64,000 nucleotides of DNA from positions 15,079 through 79,078 of the forward strand of contig JAFXPE010000004.1 in assembly GCA_017528205.1 (NCBI GenBank). Direction: 5' to 3'. Below are positions 1 through 55,723 of this stretch, in pieces. The DNA is from Alphaproteobacteria bacterium (GTDB taxonomy: Bacteria; Pseudomonadota; Alphaproteobacteria; RF32; CAG-239). Numbering within the stretch: the stretch's first letter is position 1; each line of letters starts with the position of its first letter. The notes under the pieces are model-generated. The model was not told where the DNA came from, ran no database searches, and worked only from the letters and a program-made list of their open reading frames with translations. The translations under genes and the position numbers were made by a program.

Positions 1-360
1 AACTTAAACTCGGACACCAATTATCAAACAGATACCCAAAAAGATTATGTAACAATAAAAATAGACGGCGGGGATTGGCATACCGGCGATATGGTCAAAG
101 GAGGTTCACAACTGTTTCGTCTGACCGGCATTGCCACAAAAGGCAGAGAACCTTTCACAGTGCATCAAGGTAAAACGGTATTAAGTGATGAATGGCAAAA
201 TATCGTTACGGCAACTTATGACTATCTGTTCGGCAAAGGCTATATGGAACGCAATCCGTTACGTCAGAAGAGAAGGAAAACGGCCAAAATACTGAATATT
301 GAGCCATCTAACGATATATTAACCAACGCGGTTGTATCTAATTTAACAAAAACAAAATAG
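1..360 (+). CDS. 3'-end of a CDS that begins upstream of the window; hypothetical protein. The frame is open from nt 1 with no stop.
   Basis: The frame containing ORF 91..360 stays open back to nt 1 (NLNSDTNYQTDTQKDYVTIKIDGGDWHTGD-MVKGG...). The next gene starts 10 nt downstream with an AGGAG-like RBS. Confidence 0.35.
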   Translation, partial: NLNSDTNYQTDTQKDYVTIKIDGGDWHTGDMVKGGSQLFRLTGIATKGREPFTVHQGKTVLSDEWQNIVTATYDYLFGKGYMERNPLRQKRRKTAKILNIEPSNDILTNAVVSNLTKTK

Positions 361-369
361 GAGCAAATC

Positions 370-1296
370 ATGCGGATCTATAAAGAAAACATCAATATCG
401 GTCAAACCCCGATGGGAAATGAGTTAAGTATTCTCAAATATACCATAGACAGTGGTAATTCTGGTAAAACAATTTATATTCAAAGTGGTACACATGGCGG
501 AGAAATTACTCAATGGGTTTTACATGAATTATTCAGCTATCTCCAAAACAACTTAAAACGAGGAAAAGTAATTTTAGTGCCTAATGCCAATCCAGTATCT
601 TGGTTACAGCGGAATTATTTTTCCACCAACGGCAAATTTGATATGTACATGGGAAAAGATTGGAACCGTAATTTTCCGGGAAATGAGCAAGGTTCGCTCG
701 GAGAACGTATAGCCTCTGTATTATTTGCACAAGTCCGTCAGGCTGATTTTGTTTTAGATTTACACACATCACGTCTGAGTTTGCCTTTTTCAATCCACTT
801 TAACAAAGAAATGCGGAAATATGCCGAAGTTTTTGGTCTTGAATATAATCAATTTATTGATACAACAATAAAAACATCTTATAAAGATACCATAAATGCT
901 TCTTTATTTGCAGTCGATGTACCGAGTTTGTGCATAGAGTGCGGCAGTCATGATGCTTATGAACCGGAAAATATCAATCTTGCGCTTGATGGTATAAAAC
1001 GGATTTTGCAACACTTTAACCAGATTGAAGATATTTCTGTTGCACAGATTTGTAAAAAGCAAATTTTCTATGATAAAACCATAACATATTATGCCCAAAC
1101 CGGAGCACTGCTTCGTTTCAAGAAAAATTTGGGAGATATAGTGCATATCGGTGATGAACTGTATGAAATATATGACAACAATGATTTGGGTAAAAAGCAA
1201 ATAGTGTTTGCAAAGCATAATGGCATCTTATTTAAAATCTCTCCTACCCATATCTACTGGAGTGGCGATGAGATTCTGCAACTGATAAACACTTAA
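370..1296 (+). CDS. Succinylglutamate desuccinylase/aspartoacylase-family (M14-like zinc deacylase) protein
   Basis: The H-x-x-E zinc motif context (GTHGGEITQW), then ...DWNRNFPG... and ...DLHTS... in the order typical of the AstE/AspA family. An RBS (aggag) precedes the ATG. Confidence 0.55.
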   Translation: MRIYKENINIGQTPMGNELSILKYTIDSGNSGKTIYIQSGTHGGEITQWVLHELFSYLQNNLKRGKVILVPNANPVSWLQRNYFSTNGKFDMYMGKDWNRNFPGNEQGSLGERIASVLFAQVRQADFVLDLHTSRLSLPFSIHFNKEMRKYAEVFGLEYNQFIDTTIKTSYKDTINASLFAVDVPSLCIECGSHDAYEPENINLALDGIKRILQHFNQIEDISVAQICKKQIFYDKTITYYAQTGALLRFKKNLGDIVHIGDELYEIYDNNDLGKKQIVFAKHNGILFKISPTHIYWSGDEILQLINT

Positions 1297-1348
1297 CCGG
1301 TTTGTTTTAAGTTAATCCTGTATGGTATAGCCAGTCATAGCAGATAAG

Positions 1349-1372
1349 CCACCTTTTGAGGTGGTTTTTTTC
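1349..1372 (+). terminator. Rho-independent terminator (ccacct-tttg-aggtgg followed by T7)
   Basis: A perfect 6-bp GC-rich stem and a 4-nt loop, followed by a run of 7 T's, directly after the stop of the 370..1296 gene. Confidence 0.5.
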
Positions 1373-1738
1373 TTTATTTTGCAAGGCTTTCGGCTGGTCC
1401 GTGTTGTTCGCATCAAAAAACAGCCTTCCCGACAATTTACACGGACCAATTATAATGACTATCCTTATTTTTCAAGCATTTATGAAATTTCAGCTCCCAA
1501 ATGATATAAATCGGGATTTCGGGATAGCAACAACCTCATTTCCTTGAGGGAAAGAAGTTGTTTATTCAAAATGTGATATAAAATCTATATGTTTGCAGTA
1601 ACTATCTTTGAATTGCTCTTTATCAAAATTTCTGTTTTTTAAAACATCGTATGTATTGATTGCGTCATGCTGGAATAACCATACATCAGGACTGCTTATA
1701 TAGAATCTATCTACATTAGATTATAACATTAAGATTAC

Positions 1739-4700
1739 TCAGTTAGATGCCCATTGGTGGAATAAGCCCTTGTTCATGTAGCGCTCGGTAATCTTTGTTG
1801 CCACAGACCTTGGCAAGTCAAGGAACATAACCTGTGCAATACCGTTTTCAGCTTTAATAACTTTGCATTTAGCTACCACATCAACACCGTCAAATGCTAT
1901 GGAAAATTCCATCTTATCTCCGACTTTCCAATGATTTTCGTTAACAATGGTAGCACCCTCCCTATGCAATCTTAAGATTTTTACGCTCGATTTCAGGTCT
2001 TTATCGCCCGTAACATCATAACCGTAACCCATATTGTTGTTTAAGGCATAATCAACTTCCGGTTCGTTAGAGTTCGCCGGAATCAAATCACTTAAGTCAT
2101 TTTCATCCATAAATTCTCTGCCGAATATAAGACCGTTATTGGTTTCGTTGCCCAGGCTGTAGGTGGTCAAATTCCCGTCTCTGAGTATAATCTGGCCGGC
2201 CATAATCAAGTTACCGAACACATCTTGTTGATTTAGGCTCAGATTGCCTTTATCTATATGAATTTGAGAACCTTTTGCCAACAATAAATCGCCTTCACGG
2301 GCTGTCATTGAAACATCTCCGTCGACGCTGTGTATTTTGCCGAAAAGAGATATTCCGTCAGAGCCGTATAAGTTGGTGTTACCTTTTTTATTGGTAATAT
2401 TGCCGTAAATATTCAGCGCTCCGTTTTGAGTGTTGGCAATATCAATCAGTCCGCCGGCCGTTATTGCATCGTATGTTTGATGTTTGGCTATATCAATGCC
2501 GTTCTTTGCTTTCACGGTCAATTCACCGTCTTCTGACGGAGTGCCGATCTTAGCGTCAATACCATTGACTATCTTACCGTTTAGGGCAACTTTGCCTTCT
2601 GATATAATGTCGGTCTTGGCCTTAATAGCTTTCTGTGTGGTTAAATTTGCCTTTGAGGTTGCTCCGCCTTCAACGGAATATGCGCCGTCAATTGACGTAT
2701 TGGCTATATCACCCACAATCAAAGGTTTATCGGTTTCGTTATTTATTTCTATAGTCTGAGGACCGGTAGAAACAGTCATTACGCCTTTAACCGTGCCTTT
2801 GTTTGCCACGATTTTGATACCGTTGTCGGCCTCAAGTTCCGGTAAGTTGTATACATATATCTGACCGTTTTTATAAATGGCCTTGATATTTCCTTTTATC
2901 ACGCCGTCGTTTAAGTTCGGGCTTAACCGGTTTCCGCCCAAGTCGAGGAGATTTTTTTCACCGGTTGTCGGATCAACAATCAGATTTTCTTCTTTCAGCA
3001 TATTATCCGTGATTTTAATGCCTCGCAAAGAATATCCTGTCTGAATATTTGAACCCGATTTAATATCAACTTCATCAGCAGTTATATTCAGACCGTCGGC
3101 AGCAAAAATTTTACTGCCTGCATTCAGCGTGAATTTTGCATTATTTTCATCATTATGTGTTTCAATGTCAATCTGTCCGTTTGTTGCAAACAAATTCAAA
3201 TTGCCCGTATCTATATTGCTGCTTTGAATAGCAATATTACCGCTTTCGTTAAGGATATTCAGCACTCCGGTATTTATGTCTCCGTTAATCGTAATATCCG
3301 ATGCAATGGTCGAATTCGGAATATCAAGCGTATCGGCAAGCGGGTGATTATTGTCGTAATAATTGTTTATGGTTGTTCCGACAAATTTCGTATTGCTTAC
3401 GGTAAAGTGAACACCTGTTGTCGGAAGACTGTCAAATGAAGGGCGTTCATTATTCTGCTTCCATATACTTGAACTGCCATAGAAATATTCATTTGCCTTC
3501 TGCCCGCTTATTGCCTGCGGTTTATTGGCAAATTCGGTTTGCTCCTTATCATTAATAATCAAACTGCTATTTGCGGTTTCCGTGTTGATGTTTATGTCGT
3601 TAAATACCAGTGAACGAGTAGAATAATTATCTATTTGCAAACCGGATTTGGCTATATCAAATACCCCGTTACCCGTGATATTTGCATTGGTTAACCCGTG
3701 AACATTTATCTCGGCACCGTTAGGATTGATACGAATATCATTGAAGACCAGCGAATAATCTTCACCGGAATAACTGTATTCATCAGCCGGTGTTTCCCAT
3801 ATGGCATTATATTCGGCCGTAAGTTTTGCTCTTTCGTCTCGCAAATCCTCCAACAGGGCTGTACCATTGGCTTTTATGTATTGAATTGATTTAATTTGGT
3901 TTGCAATATCTTCTATTTTGCTGTTCAAATCAAGCATATTCTTGCAAGATTGAGCCGCACCTTCTCCGGTTGGGTTTAGGGCGGCAAGGTAGGTTATACC
4001 GTCTTTACCGATATATTTTGCAAAGCCGTGTAGCGTAATCGACAGTCTGCTCTTAACATCGTTGTATCCTTTTACAATATTGTTTTTCTGGGCATTTGAA
4101 AAGCCATAATCAGATGCGTTCAAAAACTCCGCCATTGTGAGATTTGGATTATTGTTAAGCGCAGTGGTATAATCCTGCATCAGCGTATTGTATTCTGCCT
4201 GGGTTATTTTGCCGGCATATCCCGGATCTGTATTGGTTTGTCGGACACACCCCATGTCTTTTTGCATTTTCAAATCAAAAGCACTAATTCCGGCATAAAT
4301 TCCGCTGTTACCGGTTTTGGACTCAAGCAAAACCGCACCGTTTTCGATAAAAGCGGTAAGCTCATTAAGGGTTGCCTCGGCATCGGCTTTTTGCTGATTA
4401 AGCTTGGCGACCAGAGTATTATAATTTGCTATTGTATTTTCATACTCGTTAATCGTTCCGTTAACATTTTCCAATTCAATATCAATCTCGGACAGTTTTT
4501 GTTCCTTTATCTTTGCGCCGTCAATTATTGCGCCGTCATTTAAGATATAATCGCCGTCATGGAAACCTTTCAAAGTTGTCTTATCAACAGAGCCGTCACG
4601 GTTGATTTTCATGTATTTTGAATTATTTACAGCGGCCGTAATTTTGCCGTTATTATTCAGGTTATGCTTGCTGCTCAAATCATATTTTGACGATTGACCG

Positions 4701-7700
4701 CTATCTGTTATAACTCCCCAACCGCTTTTGGTTACCCAATAAATTACGGAATTGGTTTCGCCTATACCGTTTGAATAGTTAATATCAATATCTTTGCCCG
4801 ATGTAATATCAGCATTCGCTTTGTTATCGAGTTTATTATTAATTGTTCTGGTTAATTTGCCGTCTTCTGCGGTAGTCGCAATTGCAGCTCGGCTCACGGC
4901 TTGGGCAAACTGAGTTAACGTGTTTGTCGAACTGTTCATGAAATTAATATCCATCAAATTACCGGCTTGCAGAGTTCCGCTGTTTTCCAGCGTGTTGTTA
5001 ATCGTCAAATTAAGATATGATTTTGCCACAGGTTCACCTCCGATATTTACCACATCGGAAACCACGCGTGACACCAAGGTATTCGAGGAATTAAAATCAA
5101 TTTCAAGTTCATTATTTGCCAATATTGTTGATTTGTTGTCGATGGTAATTTTGTTGTTATTGGTTACATTCAAGTTTGATGTTCCTTTGGCTACGGAAAC
5201 AAATCCGTCTGCCTCATTTTCTATTTTTTGTTTGAAGTACGAACCGGTAATCGCTTCAAGAACCGCATTGTGTGTTGCTTCCAATGCCGAATTTTGAATA
5301 TTTATCTCACTTGTATTCGTAATGTTATTGGTAACGTTGATAGCTCCGATGGCCACAAAACCTCCCGTATCCCCCGTGTAACTTATATCTTTCAAATCCT
5401 TTGCGGTTACGCTGGAATCTGCCTGCAATTTCAAATCTTTTGCTTTTATGTTTGAATTTTTAATATTTATTTTGGCTGTGGACGAATAACTATTATTTGC
5501 CTTGTCGCCCACATACGAAATAAATAATCCGCCACCGGCATTTGAAGCGTTATCTTCAATAGCGGTTGTGTCCTGAGTGAGCATACTAAAGTCAGATTGC
5601 GAATTAACATCGGCGTTTTCAATATTTGTTTCGGTTGAGGTATTAAATGTTGAGGTTGCAGAAGTATCCGAGACATTGATAAATCCGCCCGAACCGTCGG
5701 TAGTTTTTACCTGATAAGTGTTAATGGACCTGTTATTTATGAAAAATCTGTTTTTGTCTTGTTTATCATCTGTTTTTAAATTGGTAAGATTTAGGATTGA
5801 TTTTCCTTTAAGGGTATTAGACATACCTGTATCGGCAATATTAATAAGTCCGCCGGTTCCCGATGTTTTATCAAGTTTAGCGTTTCTTATTGTGTCGATA
5901 TTGATATTGATGTTATTATCCTTAACATTGAAGTTACCGCCGATATTGGCAAAGGTGTCGGCTTCCATATCGCTGTCAACTCTTATTCTTGAACCGGCAA
6001 CCAACAACCCGAGATTAAATGCCTTTAAGTCCGCTTCTGTGGTAGCGTTATGCTTTAAGTTGATGTGAGACGGAGTAATAATGGTATTATTACCGCCGAC
6101 ATCGAGTGTCATCTTGCTTTTATCGGTTGCTGCGGCCGCAACTGCATACACTCCGGCTACGGTTACCTTTGTGCCGTTGGCATCGGCTTTGGCTTTGGAA
6201 TTCAGATATTGATCTAGATTCAGCTTGTTTGAAGTATGGTTTTTAACCTTTAATACGGTAGCTGACGTCGCATTGGTTTCGGCATGGGCGAATGTTCCGG
6301 TATATATTCCCGCAAGTTGAACGGAAACATCGTGCGTTCTGCCGTATGCCGACACATCTTTTTGATTGTTTCCTCTGGCGGTTATAATATTGGTTGTGCC
6401 CGTATTTTTCAAAGTGAGTCCGTCTAAACTGTCAATACCGGATTTGAAATAAGCGTTCATAAATGCACCGGAATCATTATATTCGGCAACGCTTATGGCC
6501 TTAACCGAAACAATGTTTGACCTTGCGGTTACGCTCATATTGTCGTAATCGGTTATGATATCAAGACCGTTTGTCTTGATTGCTCCGTTAACATTTTCAA
6601 TAATCGCTTTAGATATTGTATTGGCGGTTGCATCGTTTTTCATAACCGAAACAAGGCTTGCGCCGGCAATCGGAACCGACAGTTTCAGCGATTGCAAATC
6701 CGTATCAACCGTTGAATGAAGGATTAATTTATCCTTGGCATTAATATTGGTATTGCCGGTGATAAGCGAAACCGTTTTATTGGTATCGTTCGCTTCAACC
6801 AAATCCACATTTACCACACTGCCGATAGCACCTGCAATATGAGTGGTATCAATTGTTGCATGGCTCTTTGATTTTGAATTAACACCTATGCTGTGGGCAT
6901 TAACCGTTGCATCTCTAATCTGCGCCAATGTTTCGGAAGAATTCTCGTATATATCCGAACCGCCGGAAACTTGCAAGCCTGACACCTCCGCTCTCATATT
7001 CGTCATTTTAACCTTTGAAGCTGATTCGGCTTTCAGCGCAACATCGCCGTCGGTGCTTTCAACTTTTCCGCCTTTGATTTCCGCAATGGTATTATTGGCT
7101 ATTTGCACATCTCTGACTCCGACGCTGGCCGAACCAAGCGCTCCGACCAAAGTGAAGCTATTTAAATCCAACTCATCGGTCAGAACATCTTTTCCGTTCT
7201 GTTTAGCCAAACCTCTTATGCGGCTTTTAGCGTTGATATTGGTATCAAGTGCGGTCTTAATATTACCGTTGACGCTTGAAATTGCACCGGTTTGCAGATT
7301 GTTGCTTGGTGTCGTCGGTGTTGGTAAGCCTTGCGGAATCATTGAAAAGGCCGTATTCAGATACTTCTTAACATCGCTGACTTGCTCGGCCTTAGAATAT
7401 GTATTTGTCTTCTGACCGATTTTTATGACCTGAACATCAATCGGAACCGCCGCCAGTCCTAAGGATAAATCTACCTGCGTGTTATCAAGTGCATTGGTAA
7501 GTTCCGAATTCATATTTACGGAACCGGCGTTAACTTGTCCGGCGGTTGCCGACAAAATCTCTGATTTTACCAGATTGTTTGCGTTGTATAAATTGATATT
7601 CAAACCGACGGTTCCACCCAAACCGGCAAGACTTCCCATAACAACGCTGTTTCTTGCTGCCGCCGTATCATTTGATTTTACATCTAAATTGCGCTCAACA

Positions 7701-10700
7701 TTCAATGTCTTTGATTTGGTGTCAACATAAGAACGTGTTGTTGAGTTAATATCATTAACCAAGGCGTTTGCCGCCAAACCCGCACCCTGACCGGTAACAA
7801 TCAGACCGAAGTTGATGTTGTTTGTTCGTCTGTCTGAATTTGCTATAACTTCAAGAGAGCCTATCTCTGCGGATTTTGTATTATCAACATATGATGTTAC
7901 GGAATTTGTAAAATCATTTTTAATCACATTGACAATGGCGCTGGCTCCCTGTCCGGCAAGAGCGGCGGCAATGGCATTATTGTCGAAGCTGTCGGTTTTA
8001 TCCTTATTGGTATTGATGCTGATAACGTCGGCATTTTCAATTTCAGAGTTCTTTATTCCGGCTTCAAGGGTTGTATCAACATTGTTTAATAAGGCATTGA
8101 CCGTAATACTTGCGCCCTGTGCCGCGGCACTTCCGCCCACAACCCAGTTATTGGCATTAATGACCGAATTGGCATCAATATCTATGTTTTGCTTTGTATC
8201 TATCACCGCATTATCAATATAAGATTTGATATTGCCCGTATAGTCATTCTTAATGGCAACCCCAACACCGGCAAAACCTTTGGCCACACCGGCAACACCG
8301 GCCGAAACATCTAAAGAGTCAATTTTGCTTTGTGCCTTCAGGGCAATCGCCGCATCTTTGAGGTTAGCCTTTTTGACAGCGGCTTCAACCGTGGCATCAT
8401 AGGTGTTAACAATCGGATTGACATCAAGAACCATATTTGATGCGCCGCCGCCCGAGACCACAATGTGCGCGGCATTTATGTCCTCATTTGCATTAAGATT
8501 GATATTTCCGGCATAAATTTCTTTATTTTTTGTTTGGTTATCAATTACTGCAAAAACCTTATCTTCAACATTATTTATGGCAATATTGGCGTTAATAGAG
8601 CCTTTTATGGCGCCCGAACCGGTAATCAATATTTGATGATTATCTTTTTTGTTGGCGGCATCTAGCGTAAGATTACGCAGTATATCAAGCTCCGAACCGT
8701 TACCGATTAAAGCGCTGGTCGTCGATTTATCTTTGGTATAAAGCACCGACAAACCGGCCGCACCTTTGAGCGAACCGCTGATTGTGCCGGCAATGATATT
8801 TTTGATTGAATAGTCATCAGCCAAAACATATAAGTTATCGGCCTTAATTGCGGAATTGGAAATCTCTGCGGTTACAAAATTTGCAATAACTTTGCCGATA
8901 CCGGCACCGGCCACGGCGATATTTGAGCCGCCGGCAACATCAAAAAACATATTCCAGTTCACAAAATCACTGTCTTGGTCTAAGGCAACACCGTTTTTCA
9001 TTTGCAAACCGTCATACAAACCGCTGGTATCTTTGTGAAGCAATTTTTCTCGGTATTCTTTACTTGTTACATCATCTCTTGAGTATTGATTATTATCATT
9101 TTTGGTACCGCCCAACGAATTAACGGAAGCAGCCGTTGCGGTAACATCACCGCGAGCATTAACATCGGCATCGATTATTTTTGCTTCAACGTTTTTAGTC
9201 AGCTTATCAACATTCACCGAACCCGCAATTACTGTTGCAGCTTCTTGGCTTGCGGCCGCGCTGACAGTTGCCCCACGCGTGTAAATTGTTGTTTCATCAT
9301 ATGCGGCAACATTAAGGCCGTTTATAAAGTTAGTGCTTCTGCCAATTCCGAAATTACCCGAAACATATGCTTTTACGGCATTATCAACCAAGTTAACATT
9401 AACGTTGGCGGCCGCCATTAAATATGAACCGCCGGTTGAAACGGCCGCGCCGGCCAAAATGTTATTGACCTTTTCGGTTGACGTTGCCGCAACATTTATA
9501 TCTTTTGCCCGCAAAATATCGGTTTGTTGATCGGTTACAGGAACCAAATTGGCGCCAACCTTATATGAATCGCCGATTTCTGCCGTTACATCGTTTGCAA
9601 ATAAATTGATAACAACATCTCCGTTAACCCCGGCTCCGCTACCGGTCGTTAAAATATCAATCGTACCCGCGGCATCAAGGTTATTACTGTTTGAATTTGC
9701 TTTAACCGTAATGTCTTTCTTTGCCGTTATGGTTGAGCCCATAATTTTGGCTTTAACCGTGTCATGAACATAGTTGATATCGGCGCTGCCGTCAAAAGCC
9801 CAACCTGTTTCGGCACCGGTAACCAAAGAACCGGCAATTGCAAAATCGTTCATATTGTTATCGGCATCGGCCAAAACACTTAAATTGTTTATATTTTCCA
9901 AGGTTGAATTGGCAATATAGGCGGATATATTATTTTTGATATTATTATAATTAACGGCAGCTCCAGCACCAACACCATTTGAACCGTTTCCCGACAGATA
10001 AGCTCCGCCGCCGGCAATATTATAAACATCTACTTTATTTTTGGCCTTTATATCAACATCAACATTTTTGGCATAATCGTCAGTCCCAATGGAGGAATTT
10101 TCAATTGCCGCCACAATTTCCGGTTCTAACGTATTAATATTCAAGGAACCTCCGACAGCTGATTGAAAACCTTTATTTTCTTCATCACTGTTGACAGAAG
10201 CGCCGGCACCGATTGAAATATTAAGTAGCCAATTCTTGTTATCGGCATTCAAAACCAATTGGGAATTGCTGTCCGCAAATTCAATATCCGAATTGTTGAT
10301 TAGGGATTTTACCGAACCGGATTGGTTATTGTATGCAACAGCGGCACCGGCACCGTTTTTGTTTGACTTTGCAACTGCCCCGCCGAGCAGAATATTTTTT
10401 ACCCCCCTCACAGCATTAATTTCTAAGTCTTTTCCGATAGTTAATTCAGAATCATTAACCGAAGCTTCAACTTTTGTATCATCTTGTGTAACATCAACCG
10501 CTCCGGCAACGGAAAGAGAAAACTGGTCTAATATTTTATCTATAATACTATCATCATCGTCATCTTCGTTGTTATTATTTTTTTTCTTTTTCAGTAATTC
10601 CCTAAAATAGGTTTCATCATCGACACTTTCGTCATCATCATCATCTTTAGGCGCCTCCGATATGGAATTATCAACAGATTTATTATCTGCTTTATCTTGG

Positions 10701-13700
10701 GCATTATCCATATTTTGCGGAACATCTCCGGCATCTTGCTGCTTTTGCTTTACTCCTCCCGAAAATGCAGCGGCGCCTTCAATATCAACTTTCTGATTAT
10801 AAGTAGTGGCATTAACGGCCAAATTTGTTGCCTCAATGTCAGAATTTTCTATGCTTGCTCTGACATTTCGGTCAATTGAGGTTGTGTTTACACTTGCGCC
10901 AACGGCTATGCCTGAAGAACTTTGTTCGCCGTCTTCAACCTCTTCTTTTTGTTGCGCCAAGGAACCCTGAACAATTATATTGGTGATTTCATCTTTAGCT
11001 TCTCTTGGATAGGTTATTGCGGGATCAACTTGCTGTTCTTTTTCCTCCGGAGTTAACTCTCTTTGTTGTTTCCACTTTATCTCATCGGTTTTATCATCTC
11101 TTTTGAGGTTTCCACCGGTTGTTCTAATGGTTGCTTTTCCGGCATTTACTTCAATATTATCGGCAACAACCGTATGGTTGTCTTTAATATTTGATATCTT
11201 GGCAATGGTATCTCCGCTGATTTTTTGAATATGAATAGAGCCGTCAACCCCGATTTTTTCCGATTTACCGCCGGTTATAATGATGTTCATATACGACTGC
11301 TCGGTTGCACTGTCAACGTTTATATTGCCCTCTTCGGCTTTAACCGTTGAGTTATCAATCATGGCTGTTGCATGATTGGTATAGTTATCAAACACAAAAT
11401 TGGCTCCGATACCGGCTTTGCCGCCCTCAACAGTCGGCTCATATTCCCAATCTTGTTGCCCCGGAAGTTTATAGTTGAGTTTTTTTATTAAAATATCAAC
11501 GAGTCCGGCGCCGTTATATCCGATAACCGAATTAACCGCATTAACAACAACATCGCCGTCTACCGTGATATCGGAATTGTTTTGAATGGCCGCTATGGTA
11601 TTGGTATTAACCTCGTTATACACCACCGCCGCCGAAGCCGATGCGGTGCCGCCAACCGAATTTGTTTGGGCAAGGTTATTAAAGAAACCCGCCATTTTGA
11701 ATTTCGGTTTCAGTCCGGAATAACTTGCTATAATATTTTGTTCGGCTAATCCGGATACTTCAAAAACAGGTGCTGTATCATCGGCTTTCGGTGTTGCCGG
11801 AGAAACGCTCCACTTTCCGTTAGCTTCGGAAGCAAATCTGCCGCCCACAAAAAAGCTGTCCATCCCCATAATCTTGAAAGGAAACCGCATTCCGAAAGTA
11901 AGACTTCCGACATTCATCGGCAGTTCGGTGGTTGCGTCGACCGTAACATTTTCCGCCTCAATTTTTGACTTATCGATAATCGCTTTTGTGGTATTGTTTT
12001 GTTCACTTAAAATAAGGGCAACCGAAACGCCGAACTTGGCCTCGCCTTGCGTATCCGATGTAGCGGTATTGGTAAGCAAATCAACCGCATTCGCTCTGAT
12101 GATTACATCACCGTCTGCCTTAACTTTAGAATTTTCAATGGTTGCGGTTGTATTATTATTGGTATTGTTGTGAACAACGGCACCGCCGAGTTCAAGCGCT
12201 GCATTGTCGCCTTCTTTGCCAACAACAGGTGTTTTGCCTTTTATTTTGTTGAATATATTAAGTTTGAAGAATTTACCTTGCAATTCCTTTAATTTTTTAT
12301 TCATTGCGGCATCAAAGGTTTTCGGTTTTTGCACCATCATATCAAGAACGCTGCCGTCGGGGGCGTTTTCGGTTTTATGCAAACTTTGCGCCAGAACGGT
12401 CGTATCTTCCGCGGTTGTAATTTCGCTGTCTTTTATACGAGCGGTTACGTTATTATTTGAACGATTTAATACAACGCCGGCCGAAGATGCACTGTTGGCG
12501 GCATCATCAGGTTTATTCGGGTCTTTTTCGCCGGCAACTGCTTCTATGGAAATTTCCGCGTAACTGTCGGATAAATTTGTGGCAAACACGCTCAAATTGT
12601 CAGCCTCAACCGTTGATTTTATGATTGATGCCTCGGTATCGGTTTTAACCGTATTGTTTAAGAACATCAAAAAGAAACCTTCTTCCAGCTTTATCGAAAA
12701 AAGGCTGTCCGAGGTGATAACCGTTGAATTTTCGTTTGTGGAAACGGCGGTTACATCAATATCGCCGTTAACAGCGTTCAAAACAGAATCTTTGACGATT
12801 GCTTTTGACACCGTTTCGGTGCCAACCGCGTAAATACCGACCGGCAATATAAAGGCCAGCAATCTGTTATTGGCATCTAAACTTGATGAAGCCTCGGTTG
12901 ATATTTCAATATTTTTAGCAGCATCTCCAACGGCATTAATGGTGGAACCTTCAACATTAACAATCGCCGAACTTTTGGCTCCCTCAAAATGTTTATAAAT
13001 CTCAGAACTGAAATATTCTGCAAAATAAGAATCTCCGCTGAATATGTAATCAATTATCGTCGGGGTTAAAAAGTTTGCATTTTCGCTGGTTTCACTTGAC
13101 GCTTCAGCATGAATGAAAACGGATAAATCAGGATTTTCCGCATCAGACGCGGTTGCTTTCAGGGCATTTATAATTGAATACCTTACATTTACTTCAGCTT
13201 CGGCTTTACCGGCCACTCCCCAAAGCGATGTTACCGGAGGGATATCGGAATCCGGCGATAAAACAAGATCTTCCAGAGTGTTGATAATAAATTCAACATC
13301 ATCAACCGGATTGGCGGCATCAAAATCCTTTTTCTGTGTGGCTGTTGCAACCAAAGAAACCGTATCTCCCGTTATATTGGAATTTACAACATTAACGCTG
13401 GCTTTTGCCAAATCCACTTTCTGTTGTCTGTCCACCTCTGAGTTTGCGGAAATATCAATTTCATTGGCAGCAATATCGGCCTGATTAATGTCCACTTTGG
13501 TTGTTAATTGTTTGTCATTTCCCGAATCAAAGCCATATCTTTTATTGGCTACAATCTTTATCTTTCCGCCTTCCAAGCTGAAACCGTCGGCATCGGTAAT
13601 ATTATTTGCTACCAAACTGTCAAAAACTTGTTTGGCTTGCTGCTGTGTCATAACCTTTTTTGGGTTCTTCACGCCGGCAACAATTCCGGCTCTGGAGCCG

Positions 13701-14356
13701 TATTCTCCGGCGACTGCAACATCTTTACCGTAAAGTTCCACATCTCCTTTGGCCATAATTTTACCTTTTACGGTAATGACGCCTTCCGAATTTTTCAATA
13801 GCTCATTATATTTTTCGGCTCCGTGTTCATAGTCAGACAGATGATAGGATAAATCGCCGTCATAAGCGTGCTTTAAATCGTTATATTTACCCAGTGTTGG
13901 TGTAGCCATTGTCAGCGAGCCGACGTTCAAAACGCCCGAAGCTCCGACCACAATGCCGTTTGGCGAAACAAAAATCGCATGCCCGTTATAAAAATTGTTG
14001 CCCTTAACCGTGTTGACAATACCGTTAATATTAACCTGATTGTCTACCATATTTACAAATTTATTATAGCCCTGATCAAATTTTAAGTTTGCCACATCGC
14101 CGTTATCCAGAGTAAAATCCGTATACTGTCTGAAACCCGTGTTACCGGAAACTTTCGCCGCATCAATATTATAAACCCCGTTATTGCCCGAAACTCCGGT
14201 AATGTTTGTGGCAAACACCGGGGTAACATCTAAAAACATCATACTGTATGCCGTTATAAACGACACAATCTTGCGAAACAATGACGGCTGTTTAAACACA
14301 ATTTCCTGCGATTTTTTAATATGGATTTTCTTTAAACGTTTAGTGGCTTTAGACAT
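1739..14356 (-). CDS. Giant two-partner-secretion exoprotein (TpsA / filamentous-hemagglutinin-like adhesin), 4205 aa
   Basis: The N-terminus has a signal-like segment and a TPS secretion domain: N-x-x-G-x-x-x-N-I... then ...FVSPNGIVVGASGVLNVGSL, which is the NPNG-type motif. Thousands of residues of Gly/Asn/Ser/Thr/Val-rich beta-helical repeats follow. There is an acidic D/E plus K/N low-complexity insert mid-protein and a distinct ~90-aa C-terminal domain. Confidence 0.85.
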   Translation of the reverse strand: MSKATKRLKKIHIKKSQEIVFKQPSLFRKIVSFITAYSMMFLDVTPVFATNITGVSGNNGVYNIDAAKVSGNTGFRQYTDFTLDNGDVANLKFDQGYNKFVNMVDNQVNINGIVNTVKGNNFYNGHAIFVSPNGIVVGASGVLNVGSLTMATPTLGKYNDLKHAYDGDLSYHLSDYEHGAEKYNELLKNSEGVITVKGKIMAKGDVELYGKDVAVAGEYGSRAGIVAGVKNPKKVMTQQQAKQVFDSLVANNITDADGFSLEGGKIKIVANKRYGFDSGNDKQLTTKVDINQADIAANEIDISANSEVDRQQKVDLAKASVNVVNSNITGDTVSLVATATQKKDFDAANPVDDVEFIINTLEDLVLSPDSDIPPVTSLWGVAGKAEAEVNVRYSIINALKATASDAENPDLSVFIHAEASSETSENANFLTPTIIDYIFSGDSYFAEYFSSEIYKHFEGAKSSAIVNVEGSTINAVGDAAKNIEISTEASSSLDANNRLLAFILPVGIYAVGTETVSKAIVKDSVLNAVNGDIDVTAVSTNENSTVITSDSLFSIKLEEGFFLMFLNNTVKTDTEASIIKSTVEADNLSVFATNLSDSYAEISIEAVAGEKDPNKPDDAANSASSAGVVLNRSNNNVTARIKDSEITTAEDTTVLAQSLHKTENAPDGSVLDMMVQKPKTFDAAMNKKLKELQGKFFKLNIFNKIKGKTPVVGKEGDNAALELGGAVVHNNTNNNTTATIENSKVKADGDVIIRANAVDLLTNTATSDTQGEAKFGVSVALILSEQNNTTKAIIDKSKIEAENVTVDATTELPMNVGSLTFGMRFPFKIMGMDSFFVGGRFASEANGKWSVSPATPKADDTAPVFEVSGLAEQNIIASYSGLKPKFKMAGFFNNLAQTNSVGGTASASAAVVYNEVNTNTIAAIQNNSDITVDGDVVVNAVNSVIGYNGAGLVDILIKKLNYKLPGQQDWEYEPTVEGGKAGIGANFVFDNYTNHATAMIDNSTVKAEEGNINVDSATEQSYMNIIITGGKSEKIGVDGSIHIQKISGDTIAKISNIKDNHTVVADNIEVNAGKATIRTTGGNLKRDDKTDEIKWKQQRELTPEEKEQQVDPAITYPREAKDEITNIIVQGSLAQQKEEVEDGEQSSSGIAVGASVNTTSIDRNVRASIENSDIEATNLAVNATTYNQKVDIEGAAAFSGGVKQKQQDAGDVPQNMDNAQDKADNKSVDNSISEAPKDDDDDESVDDETYFRELLKKKKNNNNEDDDDDSIIDKILDQFSLSVAGAVDVTQDDTKVEASVNDSELTIGKDLEINAVRGVKNILLGGAVAKSNKNGAGAAVAYNNQSGSVKSLINNSDIEFADSNSQLVLNADNKNWLLNISIGAGASVNSDEENKGFQSAVGGSLNINTLEPEIVAAIENSSIGTDDYAKNVDVDIKAKNKVDVYNIAGGGAYLSGNGSNGVGAGAAVNYNNIKNNISAYIANSTLENINNLSVLADADNNMNDFAIAGSLVTGAETGWAFDGSADINYVHDTVKAKIMGSTITAKKDITVKANSNSNNLDAAGTIDILTTGSGAGVNGDVVINLFANDVTAEIGDSYKVGANLVPVTDQQTDILRAKDINVAATSTEKVNNILAGAAVSTGGSYLMAAANVNVNLVDNAVKAYVSGNFGIGRSTNFINGLNVAAYDETTIYTRGATVSAAASQEAATVIAGSVNVDKLTKNVEAKIIDADVNARGDVTATAASVNSLGGTKNDNNQYSRDDVTSKEYREKLLHKDTSGLYDGLQMKNGVALDQDSDFVNWNMFFDVAGGSNIAVAGAGIGKVIANFVTAEISNSAIKADNLYVLADDYSIKNIIAGTISGSLKGAAGLSVLYTKDKSTTSALIGNGSELDILRNLTLDAANKKDNHQILITGSGAIKGSINANIAINNVEDKVFAVIDNQTKNKEIYAGNINLNANEDINAAHIVVSGGGASNMVLDVNPIVNTYDATVEAAVKKANLKDAAIALKAQSKIDSLDVSAGVAGVAKGFAGVGVAIKNDYTGNIKSYIDNAVIDTKQNIDIDANSVINANNWVVGGSAAAQGASITVNALLNNVDTTLEAGIKNSEIENADVISINTNKDKTDSFDNNAIAAALAGQGASAIVNVIKNDFTNSVTSYVDNTKSAEIGSLEVIANSDRRTNNINFGLIVTGQGAGLAANALVNDINSTTRSYVDTKSKTLNVERNLDVKSNDTAAARNSVVMGSLAGLGGTVGLNINLYNANNLVKSEILSATAGQVNAGSVNMNSELTNALDNTQVDLSLGLAAVPIDVQVIKIGQKTNTYSKAEQVSDVKKYLNTAFSMIPQGLPTPTTPSNNLQTGAISSVNGNIKTALDTNINAKSRIRGLAKQNGKDVLTDELDLNSFTLVGALGSASVGVRDVQIANNTIAEIKGGKVESTDGDVALKAESASKVKMTNMRAEVSGLQVSGGSDIYENSSETLAQIRDATVNAHSIGVNSKSKSHATIDTTHIAGAIGSVVNVDLVEANDTNKTVSLITGNTNINAKDKLILHSTVDTDLQSLKLSVPIAGASLVSVMKNDATANTISKAIIENVNGAIKTNGLDIITDYDNMSVTARSNIVSVKAISVAEYNDSGAFMNAYFKSGIDSLDGLTLKNTGTTNIITARGNNQKDVSAYGRTHDVSVQLAGIYTGTFAHAETNATSATVLKVKNHTSNKLNLDQYLNSKAKADANGTKVTVAGVYAVAAAATDKSKMTLDVGGNNTIITPSHINLKHNATTEADLKAFNLGLLVAGSRIRVDSDMEADTFANIGGNFNVKDNNININIDTIRNAKLDKTSGTGGLINIADTGMSNTLKGKSILNLTNLKTDDKQDKNRFFINNRSINTYQVKTTDGSGGFINVSDTSATSTFNTSTETNIENADVNSQSDFSMLTQDTTAIEDNASNAGGGLFISYVGDKANNSYSSTAKINIKNSNIKAKDLKLQADSSVTAKDLKDISYTGDTGGFVAIGAINVTNNITNTSEINIQNSALEATHNAVLEAITGSYFKQKIENEADGFVSVAKGTSNLNVTNNNKITIDNKSTILANNELEIDFNSSNTLVSRVVSDVVNIGGEPVAKSYLNLTINNTLENSGTLQAGNLMDINFMNSSTNTLTQFAQAVSRAAIATTAEDGKLTRTINNKLDNKANADITSGKDIDINYSNGIGETNSVIYWVTKSGWGVITDSGQSSKYDLSSKHNLNNNGKITAAVNNSKYMKINRDGSVDKTTLKGFHDGDYILNDGAIIDGAKIKEQKLSEIDIELENVNGTINEYENTIANYNTLVAKLNQQKADAEATLNELTAFIENGAVLLESKTGNSGIYAGISAFDLKMQKDMGCVRQTNTDPGYAGKITQAEYNTLMQDYTTALNNNPNLTMAEFLNASDYGFSNAQKNNIVKGYNDVKSRLSITLHGFAKYIGKDGITYLAALNPTGEGAAQSCKNMLDLNSKIEDIANQIKSIQYIKANGTALLEDLRDERAKLTAEYNAIWETPADEYSYSGEDYSLVFNDIRINPNGAEINVHGLTNANITGNGVFDIAKSGLQIDNYSTRSLVFNDININTETANSSLIINDKEQTEFANKPQAISGQKANEYFYGSSSIWKQNNERPSFDSLPTTGVHFTVSNTKFVGTTINNYYDNNHPLADTLDIPNSTIASDITINGDINTGVLNILNESGNIAIQSSNIDTGNLNLFATNGQIDIETHNDENNAKFTLNAGSKIFAADGLNITADEVDIKSGSNIQTGYSLRGIKITDNMLKEENLIVDPTTGEKNLLDLGGNRLSPNLNDGVIKGNIKAIYKNGQIYVYNLPELEADNGIKIVANKGTVKGVMTVSTGPQTIEINNETDKPLIVGDIANTSIDGAYSVEGGATSKANLTTQKAIKAKTDIISEGKVALNGKIVNGIDAKIGTPSEDGELTVKAKNGIDIAKHQTYDAITAGGLIDIANTQNGALNIYGNITNKKGNTNLYGSDGISLFGKIHSVDGDVSMTAREGDLLLAKGSQIHIDKGNLSLNQQDVFGNLIMAGQIILRDGNLTTYSLGNETNNGLIFGREFMDENDLSDLIPANSNEPEVDYALNNNMGYGYDVTGDKDLKSSVKILRLHREGATIVNENHWKVGDKMEFSIAFDGVDVVAKCKVIKAENGIAQVMFLDLPRSVATKITERYMNKGLFHQWASN

Positions 14357-14538: not shown

Positions 14539-14653
14539 CAACAATTGTCGGATTGTAGCGGATTATCAAGATGAAAAGAAATCGAGAATCAAAGTAAAAA
14601 CGGGAATTTCTTGAAGTTGAACGACTTTGCCAAGAAAAAGAAAGAGGTATAAA

Positions 14654-15589
14654 ATGAAAATAATCAAAGACTTTTTTATTAAATACATGGCGCTGATTGT
14701 GCTGGTTATCGCCTTGGTGTCCCTTTTTGCCCCACAGAGCGCTTTATGGATTTCGACCTCGTGGATAAATTATCTGCTGATGGTGGTGATGTTCGGCATG
14801 GGCCTGACCTTAAAGCCGGAAAGCTTTGTTTTGGTTTTCAAGCGCCCGAAGGATATCCTTTGCGGCATTTTTGCTCAATTTACGATTATGCCGCTGCTGG
14901 CTTTTGGCTTAAGTCGCCTGTTCGGGCTTGATGCCGCCCTGACCGCCGGTGTGATTTTGGTCGGAACCTGTCCGGGCGGAACGGCCAGCAATGTGATTAC
15001 CTACTTTTCCAAGGGCGACATTGCGCTTTCGGTTTCCATGACCAGCGTGAACACCCTGCTCGCCCCGCTCTTGACGCCGCTGGTGACTTATTTGCTGCTC
15101 AATACAACCGTTGAAGTGAACATGGCGAGTATGCTGTTGGCGATAGTCAATGTGATTTTAATCCCGATTGTGCTGGGTTTTGTTATCAATCGTTTCTTTG
15201 CGACCGCAACGCAAAAAATGGTGGATTTGTTGCCGGTGATTTCAGTGGTGGCGATTTGTATGATTGTGGCAACTGTGGTGGCGCACAATGCCGAAAAAAT
15301 CTACACTTGCGGATTTTTGGTTTTGAGCGTGGTCGTGTTGCATAACCTTTTGGGCTATTTATGCGGCTTTACGCTCGGGAAGTTGCTCAAAATGGAACCG
15401 GCGAAAGTTAAGGCGTTTTCTATTGAAATCGGCATGCAGAACTCCGGATTGGCCACGAGTTTGGCCGCCACCTCATTTCCGACACTCGCCATGGCCACCG
15501 TACCGGGAGCGATTTTCTCGGTATGGCATAACATTTCCGGCGCAATTTTGGCCGAAATCTACCGACATTGGCACACTGAGGAGAAATAA
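14654..15589 (+). CDS. Bile acid:sodium symporter (BASS/SBF) family transporter
   Basis: A polytopic membrane protein with the BASS-family signature region (...GTCPGGTASNVITYFSKGDIALSVSMTSVNTLLAPLLTPL...). The start was moved to the internal ATG at 14654, which is preceded by an agaaagagg RBS. Confidence 0.7.
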   Translation: MKIIKDFFIKYMALIVLVIALVSLFAPQSALWISTSWINYLLMVVMFGMGLTLKPESFVLVFKRPKDILCGIFAQFTIMPLLAFGLSRLFGLDAALTAGVILVGTCPGGTASNVITYFSKGDIALSVSMTSVNTLLAPLLTPLVTYLLLNTTVEVNMASMLLAIVNVILIPIVLGFVINRFFATATQKMVDLLPVISVVAICMIVATVVAHNAEKIYTCGFLVLSVVVLHNLLGYLCGFTLGKLLKMEPAKVKAFSIEIGMQNSGLATSLAATSFPTLAMATVPGAIFSVWHNISGAILAEIYRHWHTEEK

Positions 15590-16161: not shown

Positions 16162-16875
16162 TTAATAGAACTTCCATTCTATTGAAGCAGTAGCCCCATT
16201 GGAACCCCTAGCGGTCTTACCGCAGCTAGAAGTCGCACTAGCCACAGAAACTGGAAAGCCTTTCGCTCCGTCGTTAGGTCCTTGATTTTTGTTAACCATG
16301 CAGTGAATACTTCCCCAGACTTCACTTTGACCTGTACACGCATTTACATATTTATTCGCCACAGAAACGGCTTTAGTCCTCGCAGCAATACTCATAGCAA
16401 TCAAACCACCGCTTTTAGTTGTTCCTCCCCAGTCAACCAAAGCCAATGCAATACATGCCTCAATCGGAATATCATCAAACGATATGTGGAATGCATCTTT
16501 ACGTGTTGTTTTTTTATAATTTTTCTCAGATGCATTGAAACGAACAGGTGTACCCCATGGAGTTTGATATGTATTTGTTCCGTTACCATCCTTGCTGGCA
16601 TACATATCATCCGGTACAATATTGAATTTATCAATAATTTTACCACCTATTCCCGTACCATCACCCAATGAAGAATAGTCTTTTGAGTTTCTGAAAGCCC
16701 TACGCATATTGCTGACAACTAGAGTGATTTGTTCAATCGCCTTATTGGTCTTATACCTATTCATAGCTTTAGAATAACCGGCAAGACCACCAACGGACAG
16801 TACACCGATAATAGCCAAAACGCCAAGCATCTCAATCATCGAACGACCTTGTTCTAAATTTTTATTATTAATCAT
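16162..16875 (-). CDS. Type IV pilin-like protein (prepilin-type N-terminal cleavage/methylation domain)
   Basis: The N-terminus QGRSMIEMLGVLAIIGVLSVGG matches the class III signal (G/xxxE followed by a hydrophobic helix) of type IV pilins and pseudopilins. The Gly/Thr/Ser-rich C-terminal half has Cys residues. Confidence 0.7.
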   Translation of the reverse strand: MINNKNLEQGRSMIEMLGVLAIIGVLSVGGLAGYSKAMNRYKTNKAIEQITLVVSNMRRAFRNSKDYSSLGDGTGIGGKIIDKFNIVPDDMYASKDGNGTNTYQTPWGTPVRFNASEKNYKKTTRKDAFHISFDDIPIEACIALALVDWGGTTKSGGLIAMSIAARTKAVSVANKYVNACTGQSEVWGSIHCMVNKNQGPNDGAKGFPVSVASATSSCGKTARGSNGATASIEWKFY

Positions 16876-17004: not shown

Positions 17005-17019
17005 AAAAAAAAAAAAAAA
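17005..17019. repeat. A15 homopolymeric tract (T15 on the pilin-gene coding strand), ~130 nt upstream of the pilin-like gene start
   Basis: Counted directly: 15 consecutive A's at 17005-17019. Confidence 0.9.
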
Positions 17020-26889: not shown

Positions 26890-27392
26890 AGCTTTTCAAC
26901 CTTCAATTGCTGTGTCGGGAGGTTATATTTGGCATAAGTAAAAGCATGCTCATATATTTCTCCGTAATTATCCCAAAACGTTACCTGCCCTATAATCATT
27001 CCCGCATACAACCGGATAGGTTTTGCGGCAACAAGTTCCAAGGTCCATTGGTGGAAAGACTTTGTATGCCCCAAATTTGCCGAAACTTGCAAAAACAGTC
27101 CCAAACGTCCCATAGAGCTACGCCCGATTAAAGACATGGCATATTTTTTGCTACCGATAATTTCTTTGGTGTGTCCTAAATATAAAACATGAGGCTTGAG
27201 AACATAACCTTCGGGCGGAATAGTCACATCTTCGAAAACCGGCTGACCGTCTTGCATTTTTTGAAAAACTTTGAGCATACTCCCCAAGCGATAATTATAA
27301 CTGTTGGGGTTGACTTGATTTTCATAAAAAGGTACCAGCGATATATTACCTTTTTTTTGCTCAGAAATTATTGCTTTTCCGGTCAGAATCAT
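26886..27392 (-). CDS. dCTP deaminase/dUTPase-fold protein, paralog 2 (Glu retained: ...WTLELV...)
   Basis: MILTGKAIISEQKKGNISLVPF...SYNYRLG... and ...GRLGLFLQVSANLGHTKSFHQWTLELV...; 168 aa. It overlaps both neighbours by 1-4 nt. Confidence 0.7.
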   Translation of the reverse strand: MILTGKAIISEQKKGNISLVPFYENQVNPNSYNYRLGSMLKVFQKMQDGQPVFEDVTIPPEGYVLKPHVLYLGHTKEIIGSKKYAMSLIGRSSMGRLGLFLQVSANLGHTKSFHQWTLELVAAKPIRLYAGMIIGQVTFWDNYGEIYEHAFTYAKYNLPTQQLKVEKL

Positions 27393-28198
27393 CAGAACAA
27401 TTCCACAAAACGATTAGGATAAACATTTTTACGATATCTTAAAACCAAAACGGCATAAGATTGATACGGACGCAATTTATTAGACATTTCTTTGATTTTA
27501 TACAATCTATCAAACATTGCCTGTTTCAGCGCAATATCGGTTATATTTCTGATTTTACAAGCACGGTCGATGGTGCAGCGGCAATAATATTGCAACTCGT
27601 CTTCCGTTTCCGGATACAAGTCATTCCGGTCCTCATAAATAATTTCCAGCTTGTTGAACATGGACATAATGTCTTTATATCCGGCCGTAGTTGGAGATAT
27701 ACCGAATACTGTCTTAAATTCTTCAATCAACTCGCCTGGTATCGGTTGTTTGATATAAAACGGAGAAGCCAATAAATATCCGCCGTCTTCGATAAATTCC
27801 ACCGTTTTTTTTATGGCTTCCTGCGGATTGGCAAAAAATTGATATCCTGCTCCTATGATAACATGTGAGAATTTTTCATCTAACTTGAGTTTGGTGCCGT
27901 CGGCAACAAAATAATCTATTTTTGCATTCGGCGCATAGTGCTGCAAATTATAATTTGCCATTTCTATTGCCTCAGACGATAAGTCAAACGCCTTGCCCGA
28001 GCATCCGGTAAGCGTGGCAAGTTCGCGAGATTGAAAACCGGTGGTGCAGGCAAATTGCAAAATTCGCGAATTGGCATTCATACGCGAAAAAGTTGCCCAT
28101 TTCGACAGAGTAACATACGATCCGGGTAAAACATTCCATTGATTAATATATCCGACAAAATCAGGATAAGACATTTCATTCAATTGCCTAATATCCAT
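27392..28198 (-). CDS. Class I SAM-dependent methyltransferase
   Basis: Motif I-like region ...VLQFACTTGFQSRELATLTGCSGKAFDLS... within a Rossmann-like pattern. The start was set at the internal ATG (MDIRQL) preceded by a GGGGAGA RBS. Confidence 0.6.
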   Translation of the reverse strand: MDIRQLNEMSYPDFVGYINQWNVLPGSYVTLSKWATFSRMNANSRILQFACTTGFQSRELATLTGCSGKAFDLSSEAIEMANYNLQHYAPNAKIDYFVADGTKLKLDEKFSHVIIGAGYQFFANPQEAIKKTVEFIEDGGYLLASPFYIKQPIPGELIEEFKTVFGISPTTAGYKDIMSMFNKLEIIYEDRNDLYPETEDELQYYCRCTIDRACKIRNITDIALKQAMFDRLYKIKEMSNKLRPYQSYAVLVLRYRKNVYPNRFVELF

Positions 28199-28342
28199 CT
28201 TTTTCTCCCCGTAAAAAAGCAAATTTACAATATTTCATCAGCACGTCTTATACCATTCATCATCGCAATTTTCAAGAATTTTTTCTTGATTTATTTAATT
28301 ATCCGTGATAGCTTGTTTTGTAATGTATTTTGGGGATAAAAT

Positions 28343-50693: not shown

Positions 50694-50702
50694 TTGCCTC
50701 TC

Positions 50703-55721: not shown

Positions 55722-55723
55722 GA

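Follow-up and report, generated by a model that had tools for sequence, protein, structure and literature searches.

A Giant LktA-Family Filament of a Gut Alphaproteobacterium That Ends in a Degenerate PilZ Domain

The Adhesin Gene and Its Relatives

A 64,000-nucleotide stretch of contig JAFXPE010000004.1, hereafter the window, was analysed with respect to a 12.6-kb gene on its minus strand. The window belongs to a metagenome-assembled genome (MAG) named 'Alphaproteobacteria bacterium', where the contig measures 223 kb, and its proteins are found in GenBank as MBR3675645.1, MBR3675682.1 and MBR3675693.1. The gene encodes a giant adhesin of the LktA family, which is of the TpsA type of two-partner secretion (TPS), and the protein ends in a domain that descends from PilZ, the receptor domain for cyclic di-GMP (c-di-GMP). 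The gene, its parts from the N-terminus to the C-terminus in amino acids (aa), and its divergent neighbour are as follows.

1739..14356, minus strand: LktA-family filamentous exoprotein (TpsA type), complete gene; from the open reading frame (ORF) listing, the NF012204 and NF012206 matches, and the ratio of non-synonymous to synonymous substitution rates (dN/dS)
14210..14356, minus strand: putative extended signal peptide, aa 1-49, with a basic n-region and the hydrophobic core IVSFITAYSMMFLDVTPVFA; judged by eye
13706..14173, minus strand: LktA-type TPS secretion domain, aa 62-217; from NF012204 and from AlphaFold2 (AF2) with Foldseek
4625..13705, minus strand: beta-helical repeat shaft of degenerate LktA_tand_53-type repeats, aa ~218-3244; from NF012206 and composition
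10529..10750, minus strand: variable acidic low-complexity loop that holds an insert, aa ~1203-1276; from an alignment of 15 homologues
10578..10585, minus strand: A8 homopolymer of the coding strand, read as T8 from the plus strand, in Lys/Asn codons (KKKN); from the sequence
3677..4624, minus strand: non-repeat, partly coiled-coil region, aa ~3245-3560; from weak coiled-coil Pfam matches
2102..3676, minus strand: distal beta-helix segment, aa ~3561-4085; from a DUF2345-like match and repeat-like composition
1772..2023, minus strand: degenerate PilZ domain, aa 4112-4195; from AF2, Foldseek, a hidden Markov model (HMM) search and hhalign
14627..15589, plus strand: SBF/BASS transporter, the divergent upstream neighbour; Pfam SBF, E 8.5e-46

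In the ORF listing and translation, the ORF is complete and encodes 4,205 aa. It was compared with its 97%-identical counterpart in MAG-R073 (L003), where the BASS neighbour is likewise present. The dN/dS was 0.13, and no indel was found across 3,683 codons, which indicates that the adhesin gene is real, under purifying selection and clearly maintained. The identical 4,205-aa protein is present on six public contigs. In a scan of one genome per species, relatives of the adhesin were restricted to rumen and gut MAGs, and the adhesin is a dominant surface structure of these poorly known anaerobic gut Alphaproteobacteria.

The relative L004 (identical to P0070), which carries the PGAP name LktA family adhesin, is 79% identical to the window protein over the N-terminal 350 aa and 75% over the first 3,200 aa, and L006 is 68% identical. 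The clade consists of three paralogue groups, where group A contains the window, L003 and L004, group B contains L010 and L019, and group C contains L012-L018; MAG-R073 encodes L010 as its second paralogue. The contig of L006 (JAFXUD010000048.1) is labelled 'Victivallales bacterium', yet its tpsB-tpsA pair is 68-76% identical to the pairs of Alphaproteobacteria MAGs, a sequence likeness that suggests mis-binning or a recent transfer.

Fold and Ancestry of the C-Terminal Domain

The original prediction regarded the last ~90 aa as a distinct globular domain and tentatively offered 'PilZ-like?' among several guesses. In the AF2 model of the C-terminus, the predicted local distance difference test score (pLDDT) is ~90 for aa 4112-4195, which are preceded by a low-confidence, disordered linker, in agreement with a separate globular domain. 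The domain forms a six-strand barrel followed by a helix (E47-49, 62-66, 69-73, 83-90, 93-105 and 108-113; H118-130). The 29 best Foldseek matches in the PDB are all PilZ domains or the PilZ-like Lpg0364; Lpg0364 (4q63), MapZ, Alg44, BcsA, MotI, YcgR, PA4608 and XC1028 are among them, and no adhesin-type fold was found among the matches of the domain.

A word-based search with the C-terminal domain retrieved three fragments only. When 1.84 billion representative proteins were searched exhaustively by HMM with the alignment of these fragments, 51 clusters were obtained, 13 of which are giants of 3,482-5,785 aa. The domain is located at the extreme C-terminus of these giants, as it is in every full-length match, and all nine giants that are uncut at the N-terminus begin with a signal peptide and an LktA-type TPS domain. 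The short matches are mostly C-termini cut by contig ends, which carry the same module before the domain; at least P0050 is a standalone PilZ protein.

The relation of the window clade to canonical PilZ domains was found at the profile level. The window-clade profile retrieves the canonical members at E-values of 1e-8 to 1e-18, and hhalign aligns the window clade with the canonical clade at 99.7% probability and an E-value of 1.6e-26. Six of the seven giant C-termini scanned (P0019, P0024, P0032, P0034, P0040 and P0051) pass the Pfam PilZ model PF07238 with 35-43 bits against a cutoff of 22.5, and the seventh, P0015, stays below it with 12.1 bits. The short matches P0050, the standalone protein, and P0052 fall within the same range of 35-43 bits, and the precomputed Pfam list for P0024 likewise records PilZ.

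In the family alignment, the distant members carry KRxxxRF and (D/N)(I/L)SxxG. Both binding motifs, RxxxR and (D/N)xSxxG, were found at a spacing of 20-33 residues in 14 of the 54 sequences of the motif census. These 14 canonical members, which are down to 28% identical, share ten invariant columns, among them the two Arg residues of RxxxR and, in DxSxxG, the S and the G. At the corresponding positions of the window protein, RxxxR is replaced by GYGYDV and (D/N)xSxxG by RLHREG (1955-1972), and the window clade has a strongly conserved motif of its own, KILRLHxxGATIVNE. Because the window C-terminus is homologous to the canonical clade but lacks the motifs and falls below the Pfam PilZ model, it is a degenerate PilZ domain descended from a bona fide c-di-GMP receptor domain. 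The tentative guess of a PilZ-like module is thus borne out by the Foldseek matches and by the homology to relatives that pass Pfam PilZ.

The canonical-clade profile matches 4q63 (E 7e-5) and, more weakly, the PilZ domains of PA0012 and BcsA, so that 4q63 is the nearest solved relative by sequence profile as well as by fold. The same profile also retrieves many standalone PilZ proteins of 110-185 aa, which lack a signal peptide and are encoded on long contigs. Their sources include 'Clostridium sp. CAG:967' and 'Ca. Scatousia', hosts that we take to be affiliated with Gastranaerophilales. These standalone cytoplasmic proteins are likely the donor family of the adhesin domain.

Two features were observed just before the domain. 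In the standalone proteins P0279, P0292 and P0050, long acidic repeats of the type (DT)n or (D-x)n precede a canonical KRQYMRF...DISRGG domain. Canonical members, for example P0032, P0033, P0034, P0040, P0044, P0051 and P0052, carry a conserved linker motif, KIQxxTTTP(E/G)FKD(I/L)DK, about 20 aa before PilZ and ahead of the RxxxR arm. This motif might serve in processing or docking, and in the window clade its place is taken by EPE(V/I)DY..NNNMGYGYDV.

A CdiA-style polymorphic toxin, or another cargo for target cells, had also been considered for the C-terminus. The TpsA architecture and a compositionally distinct C-terminus after a linker would suit such a function, which is nevertheless extremely improbable for the following reasons. 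The domain is conserved over about 50 clusters of giants, where close relatives are 62-76% identical, and it is common to giants whose N-terminal secretion regions are merely 37-66% identical to that of the window protein. Both its fold and its homology are those of PilZ. The motif check of the adhesin found no VENN, pretoxin or (L/V)YVN motif that would mark a toxin boundary. As for an immunity gene, no same-strand ORF of at least 80 aa lies 3' of the adhesin stop codon, where the next gene is a convergent gene of the AstE/AspA family.

Signal Peptide and Secretion Domain

The region of aa 1-49 is the sole hydrophobic window of the N-terminus, with a helix at aa 26-40 in the AF2 model. The signal peptide is kept in all full-length relatives, and the adhesin has no other transmembrane segment.

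The original prediction stated that the TPS domain is clear. The TpsA type is upheld; the clarity depends on the model used. The NCBIfam model NF012204 (adhes_FxxPxG) matches aa 62-217 with 148.6 bits against a cutoff of 60 (E 1.3e-43), and the motif FVSPNG (FxxPxG) at aa 129-134 (nt 13955-13972) stands in place of NPNG. The classical TPS model TIGR01901 remains below its threshold on the window protein (19.9 bits against 29.1). Pfam, including Haemagg_act (PF05860), gave no TPS match in scans of either the full-length sequence or its first 350 aa, and nothing significant was obtained from Pfam with the whole 4,205-aa protein or with eight sub-segments. The whole LktA-type class of TPS domains is missed by Pfam.

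Sequence and profile searches with the window TPS domain detected none of the TPS domains in the PDB, and the structure of aa 1-290 was therefore predicted with AF2 from an 11-sequence alignment. The pLDDT is above 90 for about aa 60-190 and 85-87 in the flanking blocks. The 14 best Foldseek matches of this model in the PDB are exclusively TPS domains, namely those of HpmA, HxuA and EtpA, and the secretion domains of FhaB (1rwr) and HMW1 (2odl) are found at ranks 18 and 22. The NCBIfam match, the predicted fold and the adjacency of tpsB in relatives, which is described below, together support the assignment of a divergent but genuine TPS domain. It is the best-conserved part of the adhesin.

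Transporter Partner

The adhesin had been called an orphan, as its gene has no adjacent tpsB and its upstream neighbour is a divergent BASS transporter (Pfam SBF). Both observations are correct. No ShlB/POTRA protein was detected by Pfam among the ORFs of at least 372 aa in the 22-64 kb part of the window and the eight ORFs flanking the adhesin gene, and a tblastn search of the whole window with the TpsBs of two relatives gave no match.

In the relatives, the position of the SBF/BASS gene at 14627..15589 is held by tpsB. A ShlB+POTRA_2 gene of 580-630 aa is divergent and directly upstream in L004, L005, L006, L007 and L008, and a divergent adjoining tpsB was also found in the group B and C loci L012-L019 and in the distant canonical members L021 and L022. 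No tpsB was found within about 10 kb at L003 and L010, which are of the same species as the window, or at L011. A candidate partner is MBR3677128.1 (P0076), a TpsB that is 84% identical to that of L004. Its accession is about 1,450 numbers from those of the window proteins (MBR3675645-693), which is within the range of one MAG, and it is probably encoded in the same MAG as the window, next to a group C paralogue there. P0077 and P0072 were rejected as the organism's own tpsB, as both are from other samples.

The TpsBs of the three paralogue groups are 82-85% mutually identical and the TPS domains of the groups are 65-80% identical, which makes the sharing of a TpsB plausible; one TpsB serving several TpsAs is known in Neisseria and Bordetella. 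The orphan status is therefore probably local and ordinary, where the TpsB is shared with a paralogue elsewhere in the genome, and the original view of it as unusual is not retained.

The alternative is that the transporter was lost and export has ended, so that the adhesin is a decaying or non-secreted protein. The lack of a detected tpsB in the 64 kb would agree with such a loss, as would the tpsB-less loci of L003 and the paralogue L010. We regard it as very unlikely, because the 12.6-kb ORF is intact, with a dN/dS of 0.13 and no indels relative to L003, because the TPS domain is the part that is conserved best, and because a candidate tpsB is probably present in the same MAG. The sharing known in Neisseria and Bordetella also speaks against a loss of export.

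Repeat Shaft, Variable Loop and Homopolymer

NF012206 (LktA_tand_53) matches 13 stretches of the shaft with 77.1 bits against a cutoff of 50, and the composition of the shaft is rich in G, N, S, T and A. At the DNA level, no tandem repeats were found in the adhesin gene or its promoter region. The beta-helix is interrupted by the non-repeat region of aa 3245-3560, for which no family or structure match was obtained; Pfam and PDB searches gave coiled-coil noise. The whole protein has three cysteines, C3370 and C3471 in this region and C4164 in the PilZ-like barrel, and C3370 and C3471 could form a disulphide. In the distal beta-helix segment, the DUF2345-like match is sub-threshold (27.1 bits against a cutoff of 30.7).

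The acidic/basic insert KDDDDDESVDDETYFRELLKKKKNNNNEDDDDDSIIDK at aa 1237-1274 (nt ~10535-10648) and the T8 run at 10578-10585 are present as originally described. In the 15-homologue alignment, the flanks of the surrounding loop, NAQD... and FSLSVAGAVDVT, are conserved. The loop itself varies in length from about 25 to more than 100 residues and is acidic or of low complexity, with a very variable composition. The stretch KKKKNNNN is restricted to the window and L003; L004 and L005 have NNNNNNQN without such a run. An insert unique to this gene was rejected as a description, since the loop is family-wide, and the insert would be a rapidly evolving disordered loop that occupies the same position in every family member.

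The T8 run had been interpreted as a phase-variation design, where slippage in the A8 tract of the coding strand would switch the adhesin on and off. The tract is indeed in frame and well inside a gene of 12.6 kb, and large adhesins elsewhere are often phase-variable. Runs of at least 8 nt occur nine times in the 64-kb window, which gives an expectation of 1.8 in the 12.6-kb gene, where one is observed. Four copies of the locus were compared, including the window, and the A8 length is unchanged in L001, L002 and the 3%-diverged L003; L004 and L005 encode NNNNNN without the run, and 8-nt A/T tracts are short for efficient slippage. A scan of public metagenomes for length variants of the A-run recovered no copy of the locus and is hence uninformative. 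Because the A8 occurs at background frequency and is identical in L001-L003, phase variation via this tract is unsupported, and the tract, which lies inside the family-wide variable loop, is a by-product of Lys/Asn codons. The probability that it serves as a switch is considered to be slight.

Role of the C-Terminal Domain

Export of TpsA proteins starts at the N-terminus, and the C-terminus stays behind in the periplasm for a time, as is established for FhaB, CdiA and CdrA. On this background, the most reasonable explanation, which we hold with moderate confidence, is that the window adhesin is a TpsB-dependent LktA filament whose PilZ-derived terminus governs retention or release. The adhesin would be a Sec-exported, type Vb giant beta-helical surface filament, where the TPS domain of the FxxPxG type passes through an Omp85-type TpsB encoded elsewhere, for which MBR3677128.1 is the candidate. 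The C-terminal barrel would leave the cytoplasm last, behind its flexible linker, and most likely would control the final step at the TpsB pore, which is the choice between retention or anchoring and release of the filament. In the window protein, this control would act without a ligand.

Several points weigh against this explanation. The Foldseek E-values are modest, 3e-4 to 6e-2 for PilZ and 5e-3 to 0.6 for TPS, and the window C-terminus has no Pfam PilZ match even at E-values up to 10. The putative signal peptide was assigned from the sequence by eye, and the accession proximity that places tpsB in the same assembly is only suggestive. The role given to the C-terminus is inferred from topology arguments and from analogy to other TpsA proteins. 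Finally, the c-di-GMP residues kept in the relatives argue that the domain meets c-di-GMP there, which a periplasmic plug leaves unexplained.

This last point leads to a topological puzzle, which is that of an exported protein against a cytoplasmic messenger: the PilZ domain belongs to a filament exported by Sec and TpsB, a location that fits poorly with c-di-GMP in the cytoplasm. One solution, which is considered improbable, is that this domain responds to c-di-GMP and switches the secretion of its own adhesin in cis. In such a switch, the last ~100 residues of canonical members would bind cytoplasmic c-di-GMP before they enter SecYEG, and the ligand-stabilised barrel would resist unfolding. 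At high c-di-GMP the filament would then be held back, or stay tethered across the envelope, and a fall in c-di-GMP would allow its completion or release. A single domain attached to a type Vb substrate would thus follow the logic of LapA/LapD/LapG, and the window lineage would be a derivative with a rewired switch (RxHxxG) that works independently of the nucleotide or with a different ligand. The invariance of the binding residues in giants that are merely 28-66% identical in the PilZ domain is compatible with this switch, as are the cytoplasmic standalone PilZ proteins as nearest relatives and the lack of any transmembrane segment or cleavage motif between the domain and the exported shaft. 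The motif check of the adhesin found neither a LapG-type TAAG site nor a stop-transfer helix.

A further possibility, which we rate as rather unlikely, is that the barrel is fully secreted and forms a ligand-binding, adhesive domain at the distal tip, unrelated to secretion control. In mature FHA the C-terminus is at the end away from the cell, the barrel follows a flexible linker, and the window-clade surface motif KILRLHxxGATIVNE could bind a new ligand. Against a tip domain, c-di-GMP-specific residues are retained in the relatives, and this ligand is not known to occur extracellularly; adhesin-type folds do not appear among the structural matches.

Observations on c-di-GMP and on the export machinery were also made at two loci of relatives. 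In L011, a protein of the GAF and HD-GYP type (HD_5) is encoded at 27358-29250 on the minus strand, 2 kb downstream of the 5,060-aa member P0037, which itself has no adjacent tpsB; from its domains it is a possible c-di-GMP phosphodiesterase. In L022, the locus of P0024, a gene for an OmpH/Skp-type periplasmic chaperone follows the divergent tpsB (6509-9375, minus strand). A Mu-type transposase with TniB and an integrase are encoded near the tpsB-tpsA pair of L022, which from this gene content may be mobile.

Comparison with Known Systems

LktA of Fusobacterium necrophorum (NF012204/NF012206) has the same FxxPxG-type secretion domain followed by repeats of the 53-residue type. LktA is secreted with the TpsB-like LktB, and relatives of the window protein likewise have an adjoining ShlB/POTRA_2 partner gene. 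The differences are that the window host is an uncultured gut Alphaproteobacterium, that the partner gene is not adjacent in the window and is divergent rather than co-directional in the window's relatives, and that the window protein has the PilZ-derived C-terminal domain. None of the 51 clusters, most of which have no source name, was found to hold a named Fusobacterium protein. Membership of the LktA family does not imply leukotoxic activity.

FhaB, CdiA and CdrA are alike in being giant beta-helical TpsA proteins, which are exported N-terminus first via an Omp85-type TpsB and have a distinct C-terminal module that leaves last. This module is a periplasmic prodomain in FhaB; in CdiA the C-terminal half is held in the periplasm, and CdrA relies on C-terminal retention, which in Pseudomonas is controlled by c-di-GMP via LapG and LapD. 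The window TPS domain has no detectable sequence similarity to the TPS domains of these proteins, and the window protein has no prodomain, LapG TAAG site or VENN motif. Any link to c-di-GMP in the window family would run in cis, via the adhesin's own PilZ domain, in contrast to the link in trans through LapD/LapG in CdrA. An LktA-family type Vb substrate as such is already known; it is the PilZ-derived terminus that sets the window protein apart from FhaB, CdiA and CdrA.

The PilZ receptors YcgR, Alg44, BcsA and MapZ have the same six-strand barrel with a C-terminal helix, and the window relatives pass PF07238 and keep RxxxR and (D/N)xSxxG. According to a PilZ survey, the characterised PilZ proteins all reside in the cytoplasm or at the cytoplasmic side of the membrane. 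The window copy, in contrast, terminates a Sec/TpsB-exported protein without a stop-transfer segment. In lacking both motifs and failing the Pfam model, it resembles XC1028 (PDB 3dsg), a PilZ-like protein that does not bind the ligand. The titles and abstracts searched mention no PilZ domain fused to TpsA, a filamentous haemagglutinin or LktA, and keywords for such a fusion gave nothing inside the papers searched, which include two PilZ surveys.

Giant filaments of the TpsA type act as major adhesins and toxins, and the master signal in the choice between attachment and dispersal is c-di-GMP. To our knowledge, the two have been linked so far in trans only, by transcription or by the LapD/LapG protease relay. 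Here, a family of secreted filaments of 3.4-5.8 kaa ends in PilZ, and many of its members have intact c-di-GMP-binding residues. The PilZ-tailed giants are candidates for a new way of controlling secretion or retention in cis, for which the window protein is a natural loss-of-motif comparator of the canonical members.

Neighbouring Genes and Host

The 3' neighbour of the adhesin gene is the convergent gene for an enzyme of the AstE/AspA family. On the upstream side, an isochorismatase-family gene lies beyond the BASS gene and is followed by a gene for a bundlin-like type IV pilin at 16162-16875 on the minus strand (Pfam Bundlin, E 8e-12), which has an N-terminal methylation motif. This protein is MBR3675645.1, named type II secretion system protein in GenBank. 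Its gene is 1.8 kb from the adhesin gene, so that two surface-attachment genes are located in one neighbourhood. About 130 bp upstream of the pilin gene lies an intergenic A15 homopolymer (17005-17019), whose length no other run in the window approaches. As a candidate for a promoter or terminator tract controlled by slippage, it is preferable to the adhesin A8; its flank is not conserved in L003, so that no length comparison is obtained from L003.

The window also encodes, at 48977-57403 on the minus strand, three [FeFe]-hydrogenase-type proteins, one of which is fused to PAS, together with NuoF-like and 2Fe-2S thioredoxin-like subunits, a SpoIIE-type phosphatase and AdhE. The [FeFe]-hydrogenase-type genes and AdhE fit a host that is a fermentative anaerobe, which is unusual among Alphaproteobacteria.

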